A stretch of DNA of 64,000 nt from Candidatus Methylomirabilota bacterium (GTDB taxonomy: Bacteria; Methylomirabilota; Methylomirabilia; Rokubacteriales; CSP1-6), in contig DASXSB010000054.1 in NCBI GenBank assembly GCA_036506275.1, positions 32,840 to 96,839 on the forward strand. The letters are read 5' to 3'. The translations under genes were made by a program, and so were the position numbers. Below, in pieces: positions 12,645 through 22,591 of this stretch (position 1 is its first letter; each line of letters begins with the position of its first letter). The notes under the pieces were generated by a model. It saw only the letters and a list, made by a program, of their open reading frames with translations. It did no database searches and was not told the origin of the DNA.

Positions 12645-14681
<2,037 letters not shown>

Positions 14682-14750
14682 CGTACCGCGCCGCGGTGGA
14701 GGCGCCTTCGGCCGCGGCCCTGGCGCCAGGACGTCTCCCCGTGGTCGCGC

Positions 14751-15446
14751 TCACACGAGCGGCCACGGATAGCGCGTGCCGCTCGGATCAGCGGGAAAGC
14801 GGCGGCGCCGGAGGAGCGTGCGCGCGCGGACGATGAGCGCTTCCCGCTCGTCCTCGTCGAGGAGGGCGGCGAGATCGTCGGGGAGGCCGGTGTCGAGCAG
14901 GCGCGCGAGATCATCGAGCAGCGCGCGCGCGATGGCCTGTCCCGCGAAGTCCCAGATCACCGTGCGAAGCTTGGGCTCGGCGTGGAAGCAGAGCCCGTTG
15001 TCGACGGCGCGGATCACGCCGTCGGGGCCGAGCAGGCAATGTCCGCCCTTGCGATCGGCGTTGTTGGCGACCACGTCGAAGAGGCAGAGCTGGCGCAGCC
15101 GACGCTCGTGGCCGGGATCCTCGCGCAGCGTGAAGTAGTGCTGGCCGAAATCGGCGTGGACGAAGAGCTGCAGCGACCCGTCGCCGTACGGCCCCGCGCG
15201 CGGCACCGTGAGCGGCACCAGGTCCCAGCCGAGCGCTTCCGAGAGCCGATAGGCGGCGATCTCGCGCACGAAGAGACCGGGGCGAAAGTCCCACAGCGCG
15301 CGCTCGCCGCGCTGGGGCTTGTAGATGGCGAGGGTGCTGACGCCCGCCAGCGACACCTCGACGAGGAGAGTGGCGTTGCTGCTCGCCGGCATCCGACCCT
15401 TCACGCTGATCTCGCCGCGGGCGAGCAGGTCCAGCGGCGACGTCAC
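14751..15446 (-). CDS. SCO1664 family protein (TIGR03843-like); possible PI3/PI4-kinase-like fold.
   Basis: 231 aa with a GTG start. Contains ...HADFGQHYF... and ...ANNADRKGGHCLLGPDGVIRAVDNGLCFH..., reminiscent of kinase catalytic and DFG-like loops. Last gene of the triad. Confidence 0.75.
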   Translation of the reverse strand: MTSPLDLLARGEISVKGRMPASSNATLLVEVSLAGVSTLAIYKPQRGERALWDFRPGLFVREIAAYRLSEALGWDLVPLTVPRAGPYGDGSLQLFVHADFGQHYFTLREDPGHERRLRQLCLFDVVANNADRKGGHCLLGPDGVIRAVDNGLCFHAEPKLRTVIWDFAGQAIARALLDDLARLLDTGLPDDLAALLDEDEREALIVRARTLLRRRRFPADPSGTRYPWPLV

Positions 15447-15453
15447 CCCGACC

Positions 15454-15978
15454 TCACGTCTGCGTCACGACGTGTCCGTTGCTGCGCGGGCACACGTGGC
15501 CCGCGGCGTCCCGCGGTCGGCTGCACATGGGGCAGAGGGGACGTCCGCCCTTCATCAGCTCCCGCGCGCGCTCCACGAACCCCATCGCTTGCGCGGGCGT
15601 GATGCGGAAGCGCGCCACCGCCGCCTCCTCGCTCTCCGCCTCCTCGCTCTCCGCCTCCTCGGCGGTGACCTCGTTGGCGATGATCACCACGCGCCCCGAC
15701 TCCTCGTCGTAGCCGACGGCGATGGCGCCCACGTCCCACGCCGGCTCCATCGGCTCCTCGAGGGGCGGCGCCTCCGCCGCCTTCTCCGGCGTCGACGAGA
15801 GCTGCACGAGCAACCCCGCCAGGTAATCGGCGAGCGCGCCCACGTGCTCTTTCTCGACCTTGAGCGTGATGAGCTGCCGGCCTTCCCGCGCCTGGAGGTA
15901 GAACACGCGCTGGCCGGGCTGGCCCACGGTGCCGGCGGTGAAGTGCTCGGGGGCGCCGAAGTCGAACGACGCGCTCAT
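15454..15978 (-). CDS. DUF3090 family protein (TIGR03847-like).
   Basis: Internal ATG at 15976-15978 overlaps the stop of the upstream phosphatase (ATGA). Acidic repeat EEAESEEAESEEA. C-terminal CPMCSRP....HVCPRSNGH Cys/His cluster. Confidence 0.8.
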   Translation of the reverse strand: MSASFDFGAPEHFTAGTVGQPGQRVFYLQAREGRQLITLKVEKEHVGALADYLAGLLVQLSSTPEKAAEAPPLEEPMEPAWDVGAIAVGYDEESGRVVIIANEVTAEEAESEEAESEEAAVARFRITPAQAMGFVERARELMKGGRPLCPMCSRPRDAAGHVCPRSNGHVVTQT

Positions 15979-16628
15979 GCGTGACGGAGGCTCCGGAGGT
16001 CGCCGCTCACGGAGTTGACGGTGAGCACGAGCGGGCCTTCGGGGCGATACGCGATGGCGGTGACGGACGCGGGCGCGATCGCGATGCGCTGGAAGAGATC
16101 GAGATGGGCGCCCACGGCGTGGGCGACGGCGGCCTTGATGGGATCGGCATGCGACACCGCCACCAGCGCGCGCCCGCGATGGCGGGCGACGAGGGCGGCG
16201 ACGGTGGACGCCACGCGCGCCTGCATCTCGGCGAACGACTCGCCGCCTGGAAACCGGAAGCCGCTCGGGTGGCGCTGCACGATCCGCCACTCCGGCGTGC
16301 GTCTGAGCCGCGCCAGTGATCGCCCCGTCCACTCTCCCACGTCGAGCTCCGTGAGCCCGGGCGCCACGCGCACGGCGAGGCGGCGGGCGCGTGCGATGGG
16401 CGCCGCCGTCTCCCGCGCACGCTCCAGCGGAGACGCGTAGACGGCCGCCACTCCGGCCAGGCGTGCCAGGCGTTGCGCCGCCGCCTCCGCCTCCCGCACG
16501 CCCTCCTCGGCGAGATGGAGTCCGCGCGCGCGCCCCGGCAGCACGACACCGGTCGTCCGTGTCCGCGCGTGACGCACGAGCAGGACGAGGGTGGCCGCGC
16601 TCTCAGCCCGTCCTCGCTCCCGCCCCAT
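15975..16628 (-). CDS. Histidine phosphatase family protein (phosphoglycerate-mutase-like; MSMEG_4193/Rv2135c-like).
   Basis: LVRHARTRTT contains the RHG-type catalytic His motif. AAGGAG RBS upstream of the ATG at 16626-16628. The longer 785-aa track ORF is an artefactual extension. Confidence 0.8.
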   Translation of the reverse strand: MGRERGRAESAATLVLLVRHARTRTTGVVLPGRARGLHLAEEGVREAEAAAQRLARLAGVAAVYASPLERARETAAPIARARRLAVRVAPGLTELDVGEWTGRSLARLRRTPEWRIVQRHPSGFRFPGGESFAEMQARVASTVAALVARHRGRALVAVSHADPIKAAVAHAVGAHLDLFQRIAIAPASVTAIAYRPEGPLVLTVNSVSGDLRSLRHA

Positions 16629-16729
16629 CGGCCACTCCTTATCACACCGAGAGCACGGAGTCGATGCGAGCCGACAGCACGGAATCGATGCCGCGACGCG
16701 GACGCGATGACGCGGTGGTGGCGCGCGCG

Positions 16730-18157
16730 TCAGGCGCGCGCGTGGGCGCGGGCGGCGTGCTGATCGGCGAGCACGTGGGAGACGCAGGCGGTGACGTTGA
16801 CGGCGGCCGGCACGTGGAGGAACTCGTTGGGGCCGTGGGCGTTCGAGCCGGGACCGAGCACGCCGGTGACGAGGAACTGCGCGCGCGGAAACCGCTCGCC
16901 GAGCATGCTCATGAACGGGATCGAGCCCCCCGTGCCCTGGAACATCGCGGGCTGCCCGAAGTGCGCGCGGGAGGCGCGGTGGACGGAGTCGAGGAGCCAC
17001 TTCTCCATCGCGGGCGCGTCCCAGCCGTCGCCCGGCGTTTCCGCCTCGAACGTCACCTGCGCCCCGTAGGGCGGGTCGGCCTCGAGGACTTCCTTGAGAC
17101 GACGCGCGGCGCGCACGGCGTCGGTGGTGGGCGGAAGCCGCAGCGAGAGCTTCAGCGACGTGCGCGGACGCAGCACGTTGCCGGCGTCGGCGGGCGCGGG
17201 AAGCCCCGCCGCCCCCGTGACGGAGAGCGCGGGCCGCCACGTGCTGTTGAGCAACAGCTCGAGCGGATCGTCGTGCACGGGACGCATGCCGGGCACGAGG
17301 GGAAGGCGCCCTGCCACCTCGTGGCCCACCACCTTCGCCACCTCGCGCGCCTGGTCGAGGCGCGCGGGCGGGATCTCGGCGTGCAAGTCGGAGAGAAGGA
17401 TGTCGCCCGTGCTCGCGTCCTCGATGCGTCCGAGCAACCGGCGCGCGATGCGGAAGCTCGAGGCCACGATGCCGCTGGAGCCGGAATGAACGCCCTCGGC
17501 GAGCACGTCGACGGTGAGGACGCCGTTCACGACGCCGCGCAGCGAAGTCGTCGCCCACAGCTGGTCGTAGTTGCCGCAGCCGGAGTCGAGACAGACGACG
17601 AGCGCGGGCGTTCCCAGCCGTCCCGCGAGCGCATCGACATAGACGGGGAGGTCGTAACTGCCGCTCTCCTCGCAGGCCTCGATGAGCACCACGCACCGCG
17701 GATGGGGAACGCCCTGCGACTGGAGCGCCTCGATGGCGGTGAGGGCGGCGAACGTGGCATAACCGTCGTCGCCGGCGCCGCGACCATAGAGACGATCGCC
17801 CTCGCGCACGGGCGTCCACGCCCCGCGGTCCTCCGCCCATCCCGTCATCTCGGGTTGCTTGTCGCAGTGGCCATAGAGGAGCACGGTGGTGTCGCCGTGG
17901 CCGGGGACTTCGGCCACGATCAGGGGCGTTCGCTCCGGCAACCGCATCACCTCCACGCGCAGCCCTTCGATCGGTCGCGCGCGACACCATTGCTCGAGGA
18001 GCGCGACCGCGCGATCGAGATGGCCGTGCGCGCGCCAGGCGGCGTCGAACATCGGCGACTTGGCGGGAATGCGGATGTAGTCCGTGAGGACGGGGAGGAT
18101 CGCGCGCTCCCAGCGGTCGCGGACGAACGTGCGCAGGGCGGCCGCGTCGACCGACAT
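16730..18157 (-). CDS. M20 family metallopeptidase (dipeptidase / ArgE-DapE-like).
   Basis: Internal ATG at 18155-18157 (MSVDAAALRTF...). Motifs HCDKQP, GAGDDG and a C-terminal dimerisation domain. Confidence 0.85.
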   Translation of the reverse strand: MSVDAAALRTFVRDRWERAILPVLTDYIRIPAKSPMFDAAWRAHGHLDRAVALLEQWCRARPIEGLRVEVMRLPERTPLIVAEVPGHGDTTVLLYGHCDKQPEMTGWAEDRGAWTPVREGDRLYGRGAGDDGYATFAALTAIEALQSQGVPHPRCVVLIEACEESGSYDLPVYVDALAGRLGTPALVVCLDSGCGNYDQLWATTSLRGVVNGVLTVDVLAEGVHSGSSGIVASSFRIARRLLGRIEDASTGDILLSDLHAEIPPARLDQAREVAKVVGHEVAGRLPLVPGMRPVHDDPLELLLNSTWRPALSVTGAAGLPAPADAGNVLRPRTSLKLSLRLPPTTDAVRAARRLKEVLEADPPYGAQVTFEAETPGDGWDAPAMEKWLLDSVHRASRAHFGQPAMFQGTGGSIPFMSMLGERFPRAQFLVTGVLGPGSNAHGPNEFLHVPAAVNVTACVSHVLADQHAARAHARA

Positions 18158-18168
18158 GGCGTCCGCGA

Positions 18169-18471
18169 TCAGGACGCCAGACGCAGACCGGAGCGGATCT
18201 CGAAGAGCTCCTGCTCGAGGAGCGAGGCGTTTGCGATGCGCACCATCTTGCCGCAGTAGAAACAGTGGATGAAGGCGGGTTCGCGCCCGACGAAGGTGCT
18301 GCCGCACTTGGCGCAGCGGTCGGAGGCGTCATCCACGAACCGCTTGGCGGCGCGCTTCAGCACGCGCTCGGGGGTGAGGGGCAGCACGATGAGCACGGCG
18401 CGCCCCTTGGGGCGACGCGCCTTCTTCGACCGTCCCGTACCGGCAGCGAGCGATGCCATACGGGCGGTCAT
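18169..18471 (-). CDS. Hypothetical small zinc-ribbon protein (C-x2-C ... C-x2-C).
   Basis: CAKCGS ... CFYCGK. Lies 11 bp upstream of the M20 peptidase on the same strand. No clear RBS. Confidence 0.3.
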   Translation of the reverse strand: MTARMASLAAGTGRSKKARRPKGRAVLIVLPLTPERVLKRAAKRFVDDASDRCAKCGSTFVGREPAFIHCFYCGKMVRIANASLLEQELFEIRSGLRLAS

Positions 18472-18529
18472 TGTACATCGGTCGGCGATGGGTAAAAGAT
18501 TTCTCGGTCGGGCCGAACGGCGGGGACGG

Positions 18530-18805
18530 CTACGACAGCATCAGCTCGGCCCAGCCCACCGTGTCGATGAGCTGATCGACCTCGGCGCGTGTTCGCCGCT
18601 CGACGCGGCGGCGGCGCCGCGGGGCACCTTCGCCCGGTGATTGATAGCGCCGGAGACGCCGGTCGCGGATCACCTCCACGTCGTCCTGCTTGGCGAACGC
18701 CTGGCGCAGCAGCTCGAAGAGCGACTCGCGGGAGCGATCGACGATGATGAGGCGCCGCCGCACGTTCGCCCGCGATGCAACGGGAACGCCACACCCAAAC
18801 GCCAC
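18530..18805 (-). CDS. Hypothetical small basic protein.
   Basis: The ORF is present but no recognisable family was found and the start is unclear. Confidence 0.2.
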   Translation of the reverse strand: MAFGCGVPVASRANVRRRLIIVDRSRESLFELLRQAFAKQDDVEVIRDRRLRRYQSPGEGAPRRRRRVERRTRAEVDQLIDTVGWAELMLS

Positions 18806-18876
18806 GTTTGCCGGAGAGATACCACGCGTGAACCTGTCAAGCCGCCAACAGCGACGTCAGGAGCGATCGGAATCGA

Positions 18877-21192
18877 TCACGTCTGCAGCGCGCGCCACAC
18901 GCGTTCGGCGCGAAGCGGCATGTCGAGATGCCGGACGTGAAACGGCGCCAGCGCATCCACCACGGCGTTGACGATGGCCGGCGTGGAGCCGATGGTAGCC
19001 GCTTCACCGATGCCCTTGGCGCCCATCGGATTGAAGGGGGTCCGGGTGACGGTAGCGTCGGTCACGAACGATGGAAGGTCGGTCGCGCGCGGCACCGCGT
19101 AGTCCATGAGGGAGCCCGTGAGGAGCTGGCCGTCGGCGGCGAAGACGACCTCCTCCAGCAGCGCCTGCGCGATCCCTTGCGCGAGACCACCGTGGACCTG
19201 CCCCGCCACCAGATTCGGGGTGATCCGCACGCCGCAGTCGTCGACGGAGACGAAGCGGCGCACCGTCACGTGCCCGGTGGCGCGGTCGATCTCGACCACG
19301 GCCACGTGGGCGCCGAAGGGATACACGAGCTGAGGGGGACGGAAGAAGTCGGTGGCCTCCAGCCCTGACTCCAGGCCGGCCGGCAGCGCGCCCCCGTAAG
19401 CGGTGGCCGCGATCTGCGCGAGCGTCAGCGCGCTCTTCGGGGAGCCCTTGACCTGATAGCGGCCGTCGTCGAGGACGACGTCGTCGGCCGCGGCCTCCAG
19501 CATATGGGCCGCGACGCGGCGTGCCTTCTCCTGCACCTTCACGGCGGCGCCGAGGATGGCGGAGCCGCCCACGGCGAGGCTGCGGCTCCCGCCGGTCCCG
19601 TTGCCCATCGGGATGGCGGCGGTGTCACCGTGACGGACCACGATCTTGTCGAAGTCCACTCCGAGCTGATCGGCGATGATCTGCGCGAACGTCGTCTCGT
19701 GTCCTTGACCGTGCGCCGACGTTCCCGTGTAGGCGGTGACGGTGCCGCCCGGCTCCACGCGCACCACCGCGCTCTCGAAGGGGCCGAAGCCACACATCTC
19801 GACGTAGCACGCCATCCCGATGCCGAGCAGCGGCGTATCCGCCCGCTGGCGCCGCTCGCGCTGCTCCGTGCGCAGCTTTCCATACTCGGCGACGTCGAGG
19901 GCCTTGGTGAGCGCGCGATCGTACTCGCCGCTGTCGTAGTGCTGTCCCGTCGGCGCCTGATACGGGAAGGCGTCAGGCGGGATGAAGTTCCGCCGTCGCA
20001 CCGTTTCCGGAGCCCGCCCCAGCTCGGCGGCGATGACGTCGACGATGCGCTCGATGTAGTACGCCGCCTCCGGCCGCCCCGCGCCGCGATAGGCGGCGAC
20101 GGGCGTGCTGTTCGTGAAGACACACGTGGCCTTGAGGTCGAGATGGGGGATGCGATACACGCCCACGCCCATCATGAGCGTGAGCTCGGGGATGAACGTG
20201 AAGATCGGGTAGGCGCCGATGTCGGCCGTGACCCGCAGGCGGAGGGCGGTGATGGCGCCGTCGTCCTCCACTGCCGCTTCGACGTCGGCGACCTGCGCGC
20301 GTCCGTGCGTGGTCGTCATCATGTGCTCGAGCCGCGTCTCCGTCCAGCGCACGGGAATGTGGTGGACGCGGGCGATGACGGCGAGGGTGGCGTCCTCCGG
20401 ATAGAGGCCGAACTTGACACCGAAGCCGCCACCCACCTCGGGCGCGATGACGCGCACGAGATTCTGCGGGAGGCCGAGCGCGGTCGCGATGTCGTTGCGC
20501 AGCACGTGCGGCGCCTGGTTGGTGGCCCACACCACGATGCCGCCGGTGGCGGGATCGGGAGCGGCGAGGACGGCGCGGCCCTCCATGGGCACGCCCGACA
20601 GGCGCTGGCTGATCATGCGTTGGCGGACGACACGGCGCGCGCGCGCGAAGGCGGCGTCGGGATCGCCGGCGCGGATCTCCTTCACGTGCTCGACGTTGCC
20701 GGGCGCGTCGTCGTGCAGGAGGGGCGCGCTCTTCTCGAGGGCGGCGAAGGCGTCGGCGACGGCGGGCAATGGCTCCCAGTCCACGACGACGTCGGCGGCG
20801 GCATCGGCGGCGAGCGCTTCCGACGTGGCGACGACGGCCGCCACCGCCTCCCCCACGTGGCGCACGCGTCCTAGTGACAGCGGGCAATGCCGACGCCCCG
20901 CGCTCACCTCGCCGTCGCTGGGGCCGCCTCCCTCACCGCCGCCGCCGAGCGGCACCGGCGCCGTGTGGCGCCGGATGTCCTCTCCGGTGAGGACCAGCCT
21001 CACGCCCTCGCGCGCGCGCGCCGCGCTCGTGTCGATGGACCGGATGCGCGCGTGCGCGTGCGGGCTGCGCACGAAGGCGACGTGGTGGAGACCGGGAACA
21101 CCGATGTCACCCACGTACGCGGAGCGGCCCGTGACCAGCCGCGGATCTTCTTTGCGCCGGACTTCGGCGCCCATGAGGCGAGGCGTGCTCAT
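18877..21192 (-). CDS. Xanthine dehydrogenase / aldehyde oxidase / CoxL family molybdopterin-binding subunit.
   Basis: N-terminal MGAEVRRKEDPRLVTGR and a large MoCo-binding domain of about 770 aa. ATG at 21190-21192 is preceded by AAAGGA. No FAD or [2Fe-2S] subunit genes are adjacent. Confidence 0.85.
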   Translation of the reverse strand: MSTPRLMGAEVRRKEDPRLVTGRSAYVGDIGVPGLHHVAFVRSPHAHARIRSIDTSAARAREGVRLVLTGEDIRRHTAPVPLGGGGEGGGPSDGEVSAGRRHCPLSLGRVRHVGEAVAAVVATSEALAADAAADVVVDWEPLPAVADAFAALEKSAPLLHDDAPGNVEHVKEIRAGDPDAAFARARRVVRQRMISQRLSGVPMEGRAVLAAPDPATGGIVVWATNQAPHVLRNDIATALGLPQNLVRVIAPEVGGGFGVKFGLYPEDATLAVIARVHHIPVRWTETRLEHMMTTTHGRAQVADVEAAVEDDGAITALRLRVTADIGAYPIFTFIPELTLMMGVGVYRIPHLDLKATCVFTNSTPVAAYRGAGRPEAAYYIERIVDVIAAELGRAPETVRRRNFIPPDAFPYQAPTGQHYDSGEYDRALTKALDVAEYGKLRTEQRERRQRADTPLLGIGMACYVEMCGFGPFESAVVRVEPGGTVTAYTGTSAHGQGHETTFAQIIADQLGVDFDKIVVRHGDTAAIPMGNGTGGSRSLAVGGSAILGAAVKVQEKARRVAAHMLEAAADDVVLDDGRYQVKGSPKSALTLAQIAATAYGGALPAGLESGLEATDFFRPPQLVYPFGAHVAVVEIDRATGHVTVRRFVSVDDCGVRITPNLVAGQVHGGLAQGIAQALLEEVVFAADGQLLTGSLMDYAVPRATDLPSFVTDATVTRTPFNPMGAKGIGEAATIGSTPAIVNAVVDALAPFHVRHLDMPLRAERVWRALQT

Positions 21193-21364: not shown

Positions 21365-22591
21365 CTACAGCGCGTCGAAGGTACCGCGGACACGGAACAT
21401 CAGGCTGTGACCGGACTGATCGGTGGCGGGGGGAAGGTTTTCTCGACTCTCGGGAAGCCACGAATGGCTCTTCGCCTTGAAATACTGGAATTGTAGGTTG
21501 TCCGGCTTGCCGGGCTCGGTCTCCGGCGTGTACGTGTACGTCAAGCCCACGTTGAGGTCCACGGTGTCGGTCAGTCGTTTCGCGTACTGAAAATCGAGAT
21601 ACGCAAACAGACTGACGGCCTTGCTGGGAGTGCCAAGCTTTGCGAGGTCGGGCTTCGCCAGTCCCGCCACCGTCCCCGCGAAGCCGGAGTCGCGCGTGAA
21701 TTTCGAATAGTGCGCGCCGAGGCCGGGAACGGTGACGTCGAAGAACACGCCCTTGGGAACGGCCTGGAGGCCGCCGATGAACAGCTCCCGATCGGGGAGG
21801 GCGGCGATCTGGGCAGGCAGGATATCGTCGAGGGCGCCGAGCACCGGACGCCGCAATGGCAAGAGCGAGCTGGCGCTGAGCTTCACCACCGAGAGCGGGA
21901 TGCCCGCCTTCACGATCGCCGACGCATCGAAGCTCATGTGGGCCAGCATGTCCTCCACATCCTTGCGCCCGATGTTGCCGTCCTTGGCCAGACGGGCCAC
22001 CGCCTTCGACAGATAGTCGGCGTCGTAGTGGAGGTTGAGCTGGAAGTTCGCGCGGAAGACCTTGTACGCGGTCGCGTATCCGCGGACCCCGATCTCCGAC
22101 GTGCTGAGGCTGGTGCTGGTGATGGTGATCGGGATCTCGGTGGGGGAATCGAACTGCCGCGGATACGGAGTGCCGAGCTCCAGCGTGCCCTTCGCCTTCC
22201 CCTTCAGCGTGAGCGTCTCGTGGTCGAGCGAGAACTCGGTGTCCTGGAGCCGCAGCGCCAGGCTGCGATTGGTGAGAGCGATCCCGGGATCCGGCGCCGG
22301 CCGCCGCGCGTCGTCCTCGCGCCCGCCCGGGAGCTGGGCGGGGGATGGCTGCGTGAAGTTGCTCTCCTCCTTTTTCTCCTGCGGCCAGTTGGACGAATCG
22401 TAGATGTCCTTGAGGAATCCGAGCACTTTCCCGGCGACGTGGGAGGCGTCGAGCGCGAAGTTGAGCGCCTGGTCGGCGCCGTCGGGAAATTCGGTCTCGA
22501 GATTCCGCAGAATGCCGGCGAGATCTCCCCCGGTCGGGAGACGGAGGCCCTTTCCGAGCGGCCCCGGAATGCGTCCTCGCGGATGGCCCAT
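21365..22591 (-). CDS. Hypothetical protein of 408 aa. The C-terminal half is beta-strand-rich and ends ...RVRGTFDAL; no signal peptide was detected.
   Basis: The ORF has an ATG start and locally lower GC than its neighbours. Alternating hydrophobic patterns are seen in the C-terminal 150 aa. Confidence 0.5.
   Translation of the reverse strand: MGHPRGRIPGPLGKGLRLPTGGDLAGILRNLETEFPDGADQALNFALDASHVAGKVLGFLKDIYDSSNWPQEKKEESNFTQPSPAQLPGGREDDARRPAPDPGIALTNRSLALRLQDTEFSLDHETLTLKGKAKGTLELGTPYPRQFDSPTEIPITITSTSLSTSEIGVRGYATAYKVFRANFQLNLHYDADYLSKAVARLAKDGNIGRKDVEDMLAHMSFDASAIVKAGIPLSVVKLSASSLLPLRRPVLGALDDILPAQIAALPDRELFIGGLQAVPKGVFFDVTVPGLGAHYSKFTRDSGFAGTVAGLAKPDLAKLGTPSKAVSLFAYLDFQYAKRLTDTVDLNVGLTYTYTPETEPGKPDNLQFQYFKAKSHSWLPESRENLPPATDQSGHSLMFRVRGTFDAL

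Follow-up and report, generated by a model that had tools for sequence, protein, structure and literature searches.

A set of three genes on the minus strand of a 64,000-nucleotide stretch of DNA (hereafter, the window) from the contig DASXSB010000054.1 of a Candidatus Methylomirabilota bacterium is an ordinary, intact Rokubacterial copy of a trio known from curated NCBIfam models, in which a histidine phosphatase, a protein of the DUF3090 family and a small kinase-like protein of the SCO1664 family are translationally coupled in a fixed order. As judged from its translation, the first gene encodes an intact RHA-type histidine phosphatase, and the third very probably encodes an active phosphotransferase, given its modelled fold and its conserved catalytic motifs. 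The reading favoured here, with a probability of roughly 45%, is that the trio specifies a self-contained kinase/phosphatase complex, in which DUF3090 would act as the adaptor of the phosphatase.

The trio and its products

The stop codon of the phosphatase gene and the start codon of the DUF3090 gene share an ATGA overlap, and a gap of 7 bp separates the DUF3090 and kinase genes (Table 1), exactly as described in an earlier note on this DNA, which was made from the sequence letters alone. The gene families were judged against the curated NCBIfam cut-offs and the Pfam gathering scores, and the three family assignments of that note hold, given that all three proteins score above the NCBIfam cut-offs: the SCO1664-like protein reaches 248.5 bits against TIGR03843 (E 6.5e-74, profile positions 1-253 of 253, cut-off 172.4), the DUF3090 protein 166.5 bits against TIGR03847 (cut-off 117.25), and the phosphatase 208.4 bits against TIGR03848, a narrow pass over the cut-off of 203.85. 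The Pfam models gave 162.9 bits (E 8e-48, cut-off 27 bits) for DUF3090 (PF11290) on the middle protein and an E value of 1e-46 for His_Phos_1 on the phosphatase. All of the motifs listed in the note, that is, NADRKGGH, VDNGLCFH, CPMC...GHVCP, and the EEAESEEAESEEA stretch, were recovered in the translations, and the M20 peptidase and the C4 zinc-ribbon open reading frame (ORF) that it placed upstream on the same strand are both real genes. A scan of positions 14500-18900 found no promoter or terminator above shuffled expectation. The PADLOC defence models had no match for these five genes (the trio, the M20 peptidase and the zinc ribbon), or for the AAA+ protein encoded further upstream, and the interpretation of the trio as a defence system was dropped.

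Table 1. Positions in the window of the trio and of the other features discussed in the text.
Feature	Position	Strand	Remarks
Histidine phosphatase (MSMEG_4193/Rv2135c-type, branch 1)	15975-16628	minus	217 aa, ATG start, AAGGAG upstream; RHA motif; isoelectric point (pI) 11.7
DUF3090/TIGR03847 protein	15454-15978	minus	174 aa; acidic linker, C-terminal Cys2-His-Cys putative zinc site, then RSNGH; pI 4.8
SCO1664-family (TIGR03843) small kinase	14751-15446	minus	231 aa, GTG start; predicted PI3/PI4-kinase-like fold
15-bp in-frame tandem repeat, EEAES units of DUF3090	15621-15661		TRF, 2.7 copies, 100% matches
M20A metallopeptidase	16730-18157	minus	Pfam Peptidase_M20; judged a neighbour, not part of the module
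C4 zinc-ribbon protein, 100 aa, basic	18169-18471	minus	Real gene, Rokubacteria-specific family; judged not part of the module
VWA-domain protein (Rv0959-like)	28058-30007	minus	VWA_2; possible distal partner of the trio
MoxR-type AAA+ ATPase (Rv0958-like)	30010-31401	minus	Pfam AAA_5/Mg_chelatase; possible distal partner of the trio

The trio is found in a wide range of bacteria. More than 7,500 homologous clusters were obtained for the SCO1664-like protein, the closest 120 of which are 65-84% identical to it and have their named sources in Rokubacteria/Methylomirabilota, plus one in Binatia, while 2,354 clusters of DUF3090 at 50% identity were obtained when 1.84 billion representative proteins were searched with a profile. 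One homologue of DUF3090 is from Dormibacteraeota. A database protein that is 100% identical to the SCO1664-like product, under the NCBI name "SCO1664 family protein", comes from a Methylomirabilota metagenome-assembled genome (MAG), which bears out the inference in the note that the organism is not an actinobacterium. The accompanying claim, that the trio stands here outside its usual Actinobacterial context, is true taxonomically, but the situation is not unusual, as NCBI already names these proteins in MAGs of Methylomirabilota, Binatia, and Dormibacteraeota.

The genomic context was surveyed in the best 80 of at least 600 loci returned by a genome scan with one genome per species, and in a further 14 metagenome loci, with the genes in all of the loci being called by a codon-position guanine-cytosine (GC) model and then clustered. 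The 80 genome loci comprise nine from Rokubacteria, about 60 from Acidimicrobiia and other Actinomycetota, and three from Chloroflexi, plus those from Arthrobacter and Citricoccus. The order phosphatase, DUF3090, kinase is retained in essentially every locus of sufficient length, including those of close relatives, in which the trio is not broken up, and 4-bp overlaps between its genes are common. When the 80 loci and one other (L001) were searched by tblastn, the phosphatase was found in 77 of the 81 and DUF3090 in 76, and some of the loci without a match end within or beside the trio. The trio is not confined to Actinobacteria, being widespread in Rokubacteria, Acidimicrobiia, and Chloroflexi, as is already visible in public annotation, and it behaves as conserved core-genome content, not as a mobile module.

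The phosphatase translation carries the segments LVRHARTR, SPLERARETA, DVGEWTG, and VSHADP, in which RHA replaces RHG, and the other catalytic residues of the branch-1 histidine phosphatases are all present. Its closest characterised relatives, the phosphoserine phosphatase 4IJ5, PhoE, and CobC, have small-molecule substrates, and SixA is a weak match by hidden Markov model (HMM). A member of the same family in Mycobacterium tuberculosis, Rv2135c, also has the RHA motif and is an acid phosphatase with no phosphoglycerate mutase activity, acting weakly on p-nitrophenyl phosphate, phosphoenolpyruvate, fructose-6-phosphate, and glycerol-1-phosphate, with a Michaelis constant (Km) near 10 mM. This protein is tetrameric, has been reported in membrane fractions, and is encoded next to uppP in many Actinomycetales.

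For the SCO1664-like protein, an AlphaFold2 model built with 42 homologues (mean predicted local distance difference test, pLDDT, 84.8; predicted template-modelling score, pTM, 0.86) was compared with the Protein Data Bank (PDB) by Foldseek, and the human type II phosphatidylinositol (PI) 4-kinases alpha and beta (PI4KII) came first (E 6e-6 to 1.5e-5; query template-modelling score 0.54-0.62; 20-22% identity; PDB 4HNE, 4WTV), followed by Helicobacter pylori CtkA, Fam20, class I/II PI3Ks, and HipA. In the model, the protein has a PI3/PI4-kinase-like bilobal fold with an ATP-binding Lys, a DRx-type loop, and a DFG-like Asp, the kind of fold that the earlier note had suspected from the motifs. 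The relationship to PI4KII was reached only through this comparison of folds, because a search of the PDB with the kinase sequence found nothing significant, and neither did one with the 42-sequence profile, the best match of which was FAM20A (E 0.3).

The Pfam evidence is divided, as the PI3_PI4_kinase family (PF00454) is matched at E<=1 by 31 of the 42 close homologues (best E 5.1e-7), but the protein of the window, at 16.0 bits (E 0.012, residues 87-159), falls below the gathering score of 27.1. The matched stretch reaches just beyond the DNG motif (D149-N150-G151), which is DFG-like and in which almost all of the Rokubacterial homologues keep D149. Across 70 kinase sequences from three phyla, the conserved elements are YKP (K43), GE, WDF, RE, FD..N.ADRK.GH (D131, R132, K133), N150 of the DNG motif, KLRTVIW, and a C-terminal YPWP tail, which is disordered in the model, and one homologue carries the source-given name "phosphatidylinositol kinase". 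The type II PI 4-kinases have a cysteine-rich CCPCC palmitoylation insert and associate with membranes; in the 231 residues of the protein of the window, there are no adjacent cysteines and no insert of the CCPCC type. On the basis of the model, the kinase is a minimal protein distantly related to the PI3/PI4-kinase superfamily, closest to type II PI4K and not, by threshold, a member of PF00454. A literature search turned up no bacterial PI4KII homologues.

The most constant part of the DUF3090 protein is its C-terminus, where the putative metal site that the earlier note had pointed out, C149-x2-C152...H161-x-C163, is invariant in 46 aligned sequences and is followed by RxNGH; a metal motif at this end of DUF3090 had been noted previously (PMC9425974). 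By contrast with this site, the acidic repeat also described in the note, which is present in the protein, is a piece of the linker that is specific to the lineage and variable in copy number, and not a feature of the family. The acidic linker varies freely in length and sequence across the alignment, and its EEAESEEAESEEA stretch is encoded by the perfect tandem repeat listed in Table 1. A 97%-identical relative (P0121) has one EEAES unit more than the protein of the window, so the copy number appears to vary between close strains. The core of DUF3090 was modelled as a PUR/Whirly-like beta-beta-beta-beta-alpha repeat, the second copy of which is interrupted by the acidic linker, and the top structural matches of the model are Pur-alpha, MRP1/2, and Whirly (PDB 3K44, 5FGP, 2GIA, 1L3A). 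No PUR or Whirly Pfam family was matched by the protein of the window, for which DUF3090 is the sole match at E<=0.01, and the comparison of its sequence with the PDB gave only chance-level matches to L24. DUF3090 is read here as a binding or scaffold protein, not catalytic and probably stabilised by zinc, for which nucleic-acid binding is possible, being permitted by the predicted fold and disfavoured by the charge.

Two kinds of exceptional arrangement bear on the division of labour within the trio. Two of the DUF3090 representatives, of 404 and 443 aa, are proteins in which His_Phos_1 is joined to DUF3090. The 404-aa form was found in both an NCBI MAG and a Logan assembly, with a second 404-aa sequence in ENA, and in the contigs of the NCBI MAG and the Logan assembly (L089 6001-7985, L090 145-2129) a kinase gene with a PF00454 match comes next, overlapping the fused gene by 4 bp. 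On the other hand, in four Micrococcaceae loci (around locus position 9350-10700 in L047, L068, and L071 from Arthrobacter, and in L079 from Citricoccus), the phosphatase and kinase genes are direct neighbours; DUF3090 is missing, and there is no space for it. Their products share about 56% identity with the Rokubacterial proteins. This pair may represent a second, DUF3090-independent version of the module. Because of the fusions and the pairs that lack DUF3090, the kinase and phosphatase are taken to be the core, and DUF3090 the accessory of the phosphatase.

Genes around the trio

Outside the trio itself, a conspicuous recurrent neighbour is a pair of genes for a MoxR-type AAA+ ATPase and a VWA-domain protein, which lies directly upstream of the phosphatase gene, on the same strand and with a gap of 13-14 bp, in three Rokubacterial loci (L087, L088, L093). 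Homologous genes are found directly upstream of the trio in a fourth locus as well (L005, in our own gene calls), in L092 the pair is located downstream of the trio at a distance of 3.5 kb, and it is found in divergent orientation next to the phosphatase-kinase pairs without DUF3090 of Arthrobacter and Citricoccus. In the window, the two genes are separated by 2 bp and lie on the same strand as the trio, 11.4 kb upstream, with products 78% (AAA+) and 65% (VWA) identical to those of L087, where the order is AAA+, VWA, phosphatase. The stretch between the VWA and phosphatase genes of the window holds genes for a nitroreductase, two NIDO/PEP-CTERM proteins, MsrA, an amidase, a 408-aa protein, and a xanthine-dehydrogenase-family molybdenum (Mo)-hydroxylase, then two small genes and the M20 gene, which is consistent with the block that contains M20 having ended up between two genes that other Rokubacteria keep side by side. 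The VWA homologues have about 670 aa and the Pfam domains Mb0984_helical and Rv0959_3rd, and PADLOC returned a weak LmuB-like match for one of them (E 1.4e-5). The M. smegmatis orthologue of Rv0958 is an interactor of ClpC1 and was recovered in a pull-down centred on RNA polymerase. Overall, the MoxR/VWA pair is a more recurrent neighbour of the trio than either M20 or the zinc ribbon, and is a possible distal partner in the window.

The earlier note had also coupled the trio to the M20 peptidase and the zinc-ribbon ORF, and this coupling holds for close relatives only, no wider linkage having emerged from the survey of neighbourhoods. The corresponding explanation, that of a five-gene operon in which M20, the zinc ribbon, and the trio would jointly process a cysteine-containing or other small peptide, draws on the common strand and the short spacers (11 bp from the zinc ribbon to M20 and 101 bp from M20 to the phosphatase), on the conservation of the block in four related contigs (L082-L085), on the distant relatives of M20 that include the Cys-Gly dipeptidase Dug1, and on L001, where the trio comes after genes for a gamma-glutamyltranspeptidase and for subunits of a 5-oxoprolinase. 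However, the DUF3090 proteins of those four contigs, the only ones to keep the block, are 82-97% identical, which confines the linkage to close relatives. Elsewhere, M20 is displaced or absent, lying several genes away from the trio in two of the nine Rokubacterial scan loci (L002, L007) and one gene away in another (L006), and none was found in the Acidimicrobiia and Chloroflexi loci of the 80-locus scan, except for one distant M20. In L002, L007, and a 195-kb contig, M20 comes directly after a Mo-hydroxylase gene of the xanthine-dehydrogenase family, in another Rokubacterium the zinc-ribbon gene is placed differently with respect to M20, and no homologue of the zinc ribbon lies within 10 kb of the trio in any of the 80 genome loci. 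Together with the VWA gene that abuts the phosphatase in other Rokubacteria, and the M20 block that lies here between these otherwise adjacent genes, these observations largely refute the five-gene operon, which is judged most improbable, and the M20 and zinc-ribbon genes were judged to be regional neighbours and not components of the trio.

Both of these neighbours are genuine genes. The M20 protein scores 594 bits against PDB 3PFE and is clearly an M20 peptidase, although its 219.8 bits against NCBIfam PRK07907 are under the cut-off of 300 bits. The zinc-ribbon ORF differs from one relative by 37 synonymous and 8 non-synonymous codon changes, a mark of purifying selection, and belongs to a family of 249 clusters whose named members are Rokubacterial and are sometimes labelled as ribosomal protein S27AE or L37AE by gene callers; its sole Pfam hint is a sub-threshold TackOD1 match. 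The spacer between M20 and the phosphatase is not conserved outside the ribosome-binding region, and contains (16650-16700, minus strand) two direct repeats of about 20 nt (GCATCGAYTCCGTGCTSTCGG) just upstream of the ribosome-binding site of the phosphatase, which are retained in the 97% relative and not in the 82% relatives.

Other features of the flank were recorded in their own right. Between the Mo-hydroxylase and zinc-ribbon genes (18530-18763, minus), there is an arginine-rich ORF of 77 aa, conserved among relatives (29 synonymous and 6 non-synonymous codon changes), with no PADLOC match and, in the relatives, no precomputed Pfam domain, and it is followed by a terminator-like hairpin (18517-18503). 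An ORF of 408 aa (21365-22591, minus) has a good coding signal and no Pfam match, and in L083-L085 the equivalent position is occupied by a 258-aa gene of the cyclase family. Two tandem paralogous NIDO-domain proteins with PEP-CTERM signals (25177-26043 and 26334-27230, minus) are also found in L083 and L084.

Across the phyla, the neighbourhoods of the trio differ. The Acidimicrobiia have FrhB-like, UDG, ETF, GDPD, DAGK-like, WhiB, and PdtaS genes near it, the Rokubacteria have peptidases, an amidase, a protoglobin, Fpg, and transporters, and the Chloroflexi have ABC transporter, purA, and phosphoribosyltransferase (PRTase) genes, with no metabolic neighbour conserved across phyla in the surveyed loci. 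In 42 Acidimicrobiia loci, an FrhB/FdhB-like protein with a 4Fe-4S dicluster domain is encoded upstream of the trio, often on the same strand (e.g., L054 5897-7042), which may be inherited synteny. In L001 (2662-8846), the genes that precede the trio are those of the A and B subunits of a hydantoinase/oxoprolinase, a DinB_2 protein, and the gamma-glutamyltranspeptidase. Several metabolic themes were considered on this basis and set aside. A gamma-glutamyl or low-molecular-weight-thiol theme (the gamma-glutamyltranspeptidase, oxoprolinase, and DinB of L001, and M20 in the window) was not repeated in the other Rokubacterial loci, and the themes of cofactor F420 (the FrhB-like neighbour and luciferase-like genes) and of purines (purC, purA, PRTase) were left as unsupported coincidences. 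In the Actinobacteria, SCO1664 is reported to adjoin mshC invariably (PMC4255298). No mshC domain, of the cysteinyl-tRNA-synthetase-like type, was found in the scanned flanks of the window and its close relatives, or near the trio in the 80 loci, and a link to mycothiol was rejected for the window, given also that in the Acidimicrobiia the upstream gene is FrhB-like and the gene on the opposite strand is UDG.

A proposed phospho-switch and its alternatives

In the reading favoured here, the three proteins would form one complex, in which the kinase would add a phosphate to a shared hydroxyl-bearing target and the phosphatase would remove (or shift) it, with DUF3090 serving as a zinc-stabilised targeting or regulatory subunit of the phosphatase and not as an enzyme. 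Because nothing else is linked to the trio across phyla, the module would be a self-contained housekeeping switch, and not a step in a catabolic pathway. The fusions of the phosphatase and DUF3090 support, at the level of sequence, a physical link between the two, and the complementary charge of the proteins (pI 4.8 for DUF3090 and 11.7 for the phosphatase) was also counted in favour of a complex. As for the target, the linkage to MoxR/VWA, a third subunit that resembles an adaptor, and the self-contained nature of the genetics are the reasons to lean slightly towards a protein or complex-level target over an inositol-type lipid or headgroup.

A number of observations weigh against this proposal. 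The nearest structural relatives of the modelled kinase are lipid kinases, not protein kinases, and the adjacency of the trio to mshC and uppP in Actinomycetes points to a small-molecule or lipid substrate, as do the genes found nearby for a DAGK-type lipid kinase (Acidimicrobiia and one Anaerolineae genome) and for a glycerophosphodiesterase (Acidimicrobiia). The activities of Rv2135c are weak and unspecific (Km about 10 mM), and DUF3090 is dispensable in at least one version of the module, that of the Micrococcaceae. The MoxR/VWA linkage is absent from most Acidimicrobiia loci and is 11 kb distant in the window, and both the formation of a complex and the sharing of a substrate are steps that we infer. 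The earlier note was right to call the function of the trio undefined, in that the literature searched gives biochemistry for the phosphatase Rv2135c only and no cellular function for the trio, which is not mentioned in the supplements of a 2026 mycobacterial interactome preprint.

Some of these observations lend weight to a cycle of an inositol lipid or headgroup, in which the kinase would phosphorylate phosphatidylinositol or a soluble inositol conjugate, the phosphatase would remove that phosphate or another one, and DUF3090 would target the pair to the headgroup or membrane. Such a cycle would give bacteria an equivalent of the eukaryotic pair of type II PI4K and phosphoinositide phosphatase, and it is the possibility that comes closest to the switch proposed above, being almost as likely as a protein target. 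Type II PI4K is the best structural match of the kinase, at 20-22% identity, and there are PF00454 matches among the homologues; the trio counts as a signature set of the Actinobacteria, with a link to mshC, which acts on an inositol-containing substrate, and Rv2135c occurs in membrane fractions and adjoins uppP, to which can be added the DAGK-type and glycerophosphodiesterase neighbours. Actinomycetes reportedly accumulate phosphatidylinositol 3-phosphate transiently under salt stress. However, the kinase is without the CCPCC palmitoylation insert of PI4KII and reaches 16 bits against a gathering score of 27.1 for PF00454, no inositol gene was found among the scanned neighbours, and we know of no inositol lipids in Rokubacteria. 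PI synthesis is, moreover, essential in mycobacteria, whereas transposon mutants of Rv2134c are viable. A preprint of July 2026 cuts both ways, by calling the mycobacterial phosphatidylinositol phosphate (PIP) phosphatase "long-sought" and by putting forward EphE for this role. The bolder version, in which the trio as a whole would be a prokaryotic phosphoinositide-type cycle from the Actinobacteria to the Rokubacteria and Chloroflexi, with a minimal PI4KII homologue writing on PI or its headgroup and a DUF3090-tethered phosphatase erasing, is improbable.

A two-step phosphomutase or salvage route for a small metabolite is comparably doubtful. Here, the kinase would phosphorylate a sugar-like metabolite and the phosphatase-fold enzyme would move the phosphate or remove it elsewhere, with DUF3090 as an accessory, an idea that we take to be attached to the name of TIGR03848, "putative phosphomutase". 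This family is named in full "MSMEG_4193 family putative phosphomutase", the nearest characterised relatives of the phosphatase (4IJ5, PhoE, CobC) act on small molecules, and purC, purA, and a phosphoribosyltransferase gene flank the trio in three unrelated loci. Yet Rv2135c has no phosphoglycerate mutase activity and is a weak phosphatase with a millimolar Km on the metabolites tried, no transporter, dehydrogenase, or nucleotidyltransferase is consistently linked to the trio across phyla, and a non-enzymatic zinc-site protein fused to the phosphatase would be unusual for a metabolic step. Less probable still is the end-processing of nucleic acids, in which DUF3090 would use the predicted PUR/Whirly-like fold and the putative zinc tail to bind single-stranded DNA or RNA while the kinase and phosphatase acted on different termini (as a 5'-OH kinase and a 3'-phosphatase), in a Pnkp-like manner. 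The structural matches of DUF3090 to Pur-alpha, MRP1/2, and Whirly speak for it, and in end-healing enzymes a kinase and a phosphatase do work together without a futile cycle. The Rv2134c mutants of BCG are more sensitive to rifampicin and appear on the same list as Rv2228c (RNase H/acid phosphatase) and uvrA, the orthologue of Rv0958 co-purified with RNA polymerase-associated material, and several lineages have Fpg and UDG genes in the vicinity of the trio. These points are set against the acidity of DUF3090 throughout the family (pI 4.55-5.97), which is unfavourable for binding nucleic acids, and against the finding that FLAG-tagged MSMEG_5512 pulled down no DNA; in addition, we know of no polynucleotide kinase with a PI3/4-kinase fold and of no 3'-phosphatase with a histidine-phosphatase fold.

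Significance and relation to known systems

The copy of the trio in the window adds little by itself, because public annotation already names it and the trio is common in the phylum. The trio as such is among the most widely conserved of the uncharacterised gene sets of the Actinobacteria, including Rv2133c-Rv2135c of M. tuberculosis, and is no less established in Rokubacteria, Acidimicrobiia, and Chloroflexi, and the joint role of the kinase, phosphatase, and DUF3090, once known, would annotate thousands of "hypothetical" genes. The outcome could be a bacterial phospho-switch not known before, or else an inositol-lipid cycle in bacteria. If the phosphoinositide cycle were true, the enzymes of the trio would be candidates for the turnover of PIP in bacteria, and the trio would point to a relative of the PI4KII lineage there. 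The NCBIfam models of the trio, the PI-kinase-like naming of a kinase homologue, the metal motif of DUF3090, and the linkage between SCO1664 and mshC are already known. The match of the modelled kinase fold to type II PI4K, the PUR-like fold predicted for DUF3090, the phosphatase-DUF3090 fusion, the pairs without DUF3090, and the MoxR/VWA association were not found stated elsewhere, and are offered as leads, not proofs.

In comparison with known systems, the trio of the window is closest to those of the Actinobacteria, Rv2135c-Rv2134c-Rv2133c, MSMEG_4193-4191, and SCO1666-SCO1664, with which it shares the gene order, the tight coupling, the RHA motif, the CxxC...HxC site, and the kinase motifs. 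It differs from them in its Methylomirabilota host, in a TIGR03848 score that is barely above the cut-off, in the lineage-specific EEAES tandem repeat of the linker, and in having neither mshC nor uppP as a neighbour among the flanking genes scanned. With the type II PI 4-kinases, the kinase has in common an NADRK-type catalytic loop, with DNG replacing DFG, whereas it is about half the size (231 aa) of PI4KII alpha and beta, has no CCPCC insert, and is coupled in an operon to a histidine phosphatase and DUF3090. The folds of Pur-alpha and Whirly, which the model of DUF3090 resembles, are matched at only 7-9% identity by a protein that is acidic and has, in the model, an interrupted second repeat, with an additional Cys2-His-Cys tail. 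The MoxR-AAA+/VWA remodelling pairs of the Rv0958/Rv0959 type are represented by homologues that adjoin the trio in four Rokubacterial loci, and not in the window. Finally, the kinases of the HipA and PIKK types and the phosphatases SixA, Sts, and PGAM5 offer a parallel in that a kinase of PI3/4K-like fold and a branch-1 histidine phosphatase are likewise involved, which are here encoded together, in a trio that has no toxin-antitoxin or two-component context and for which a protein is a candidate substrate.

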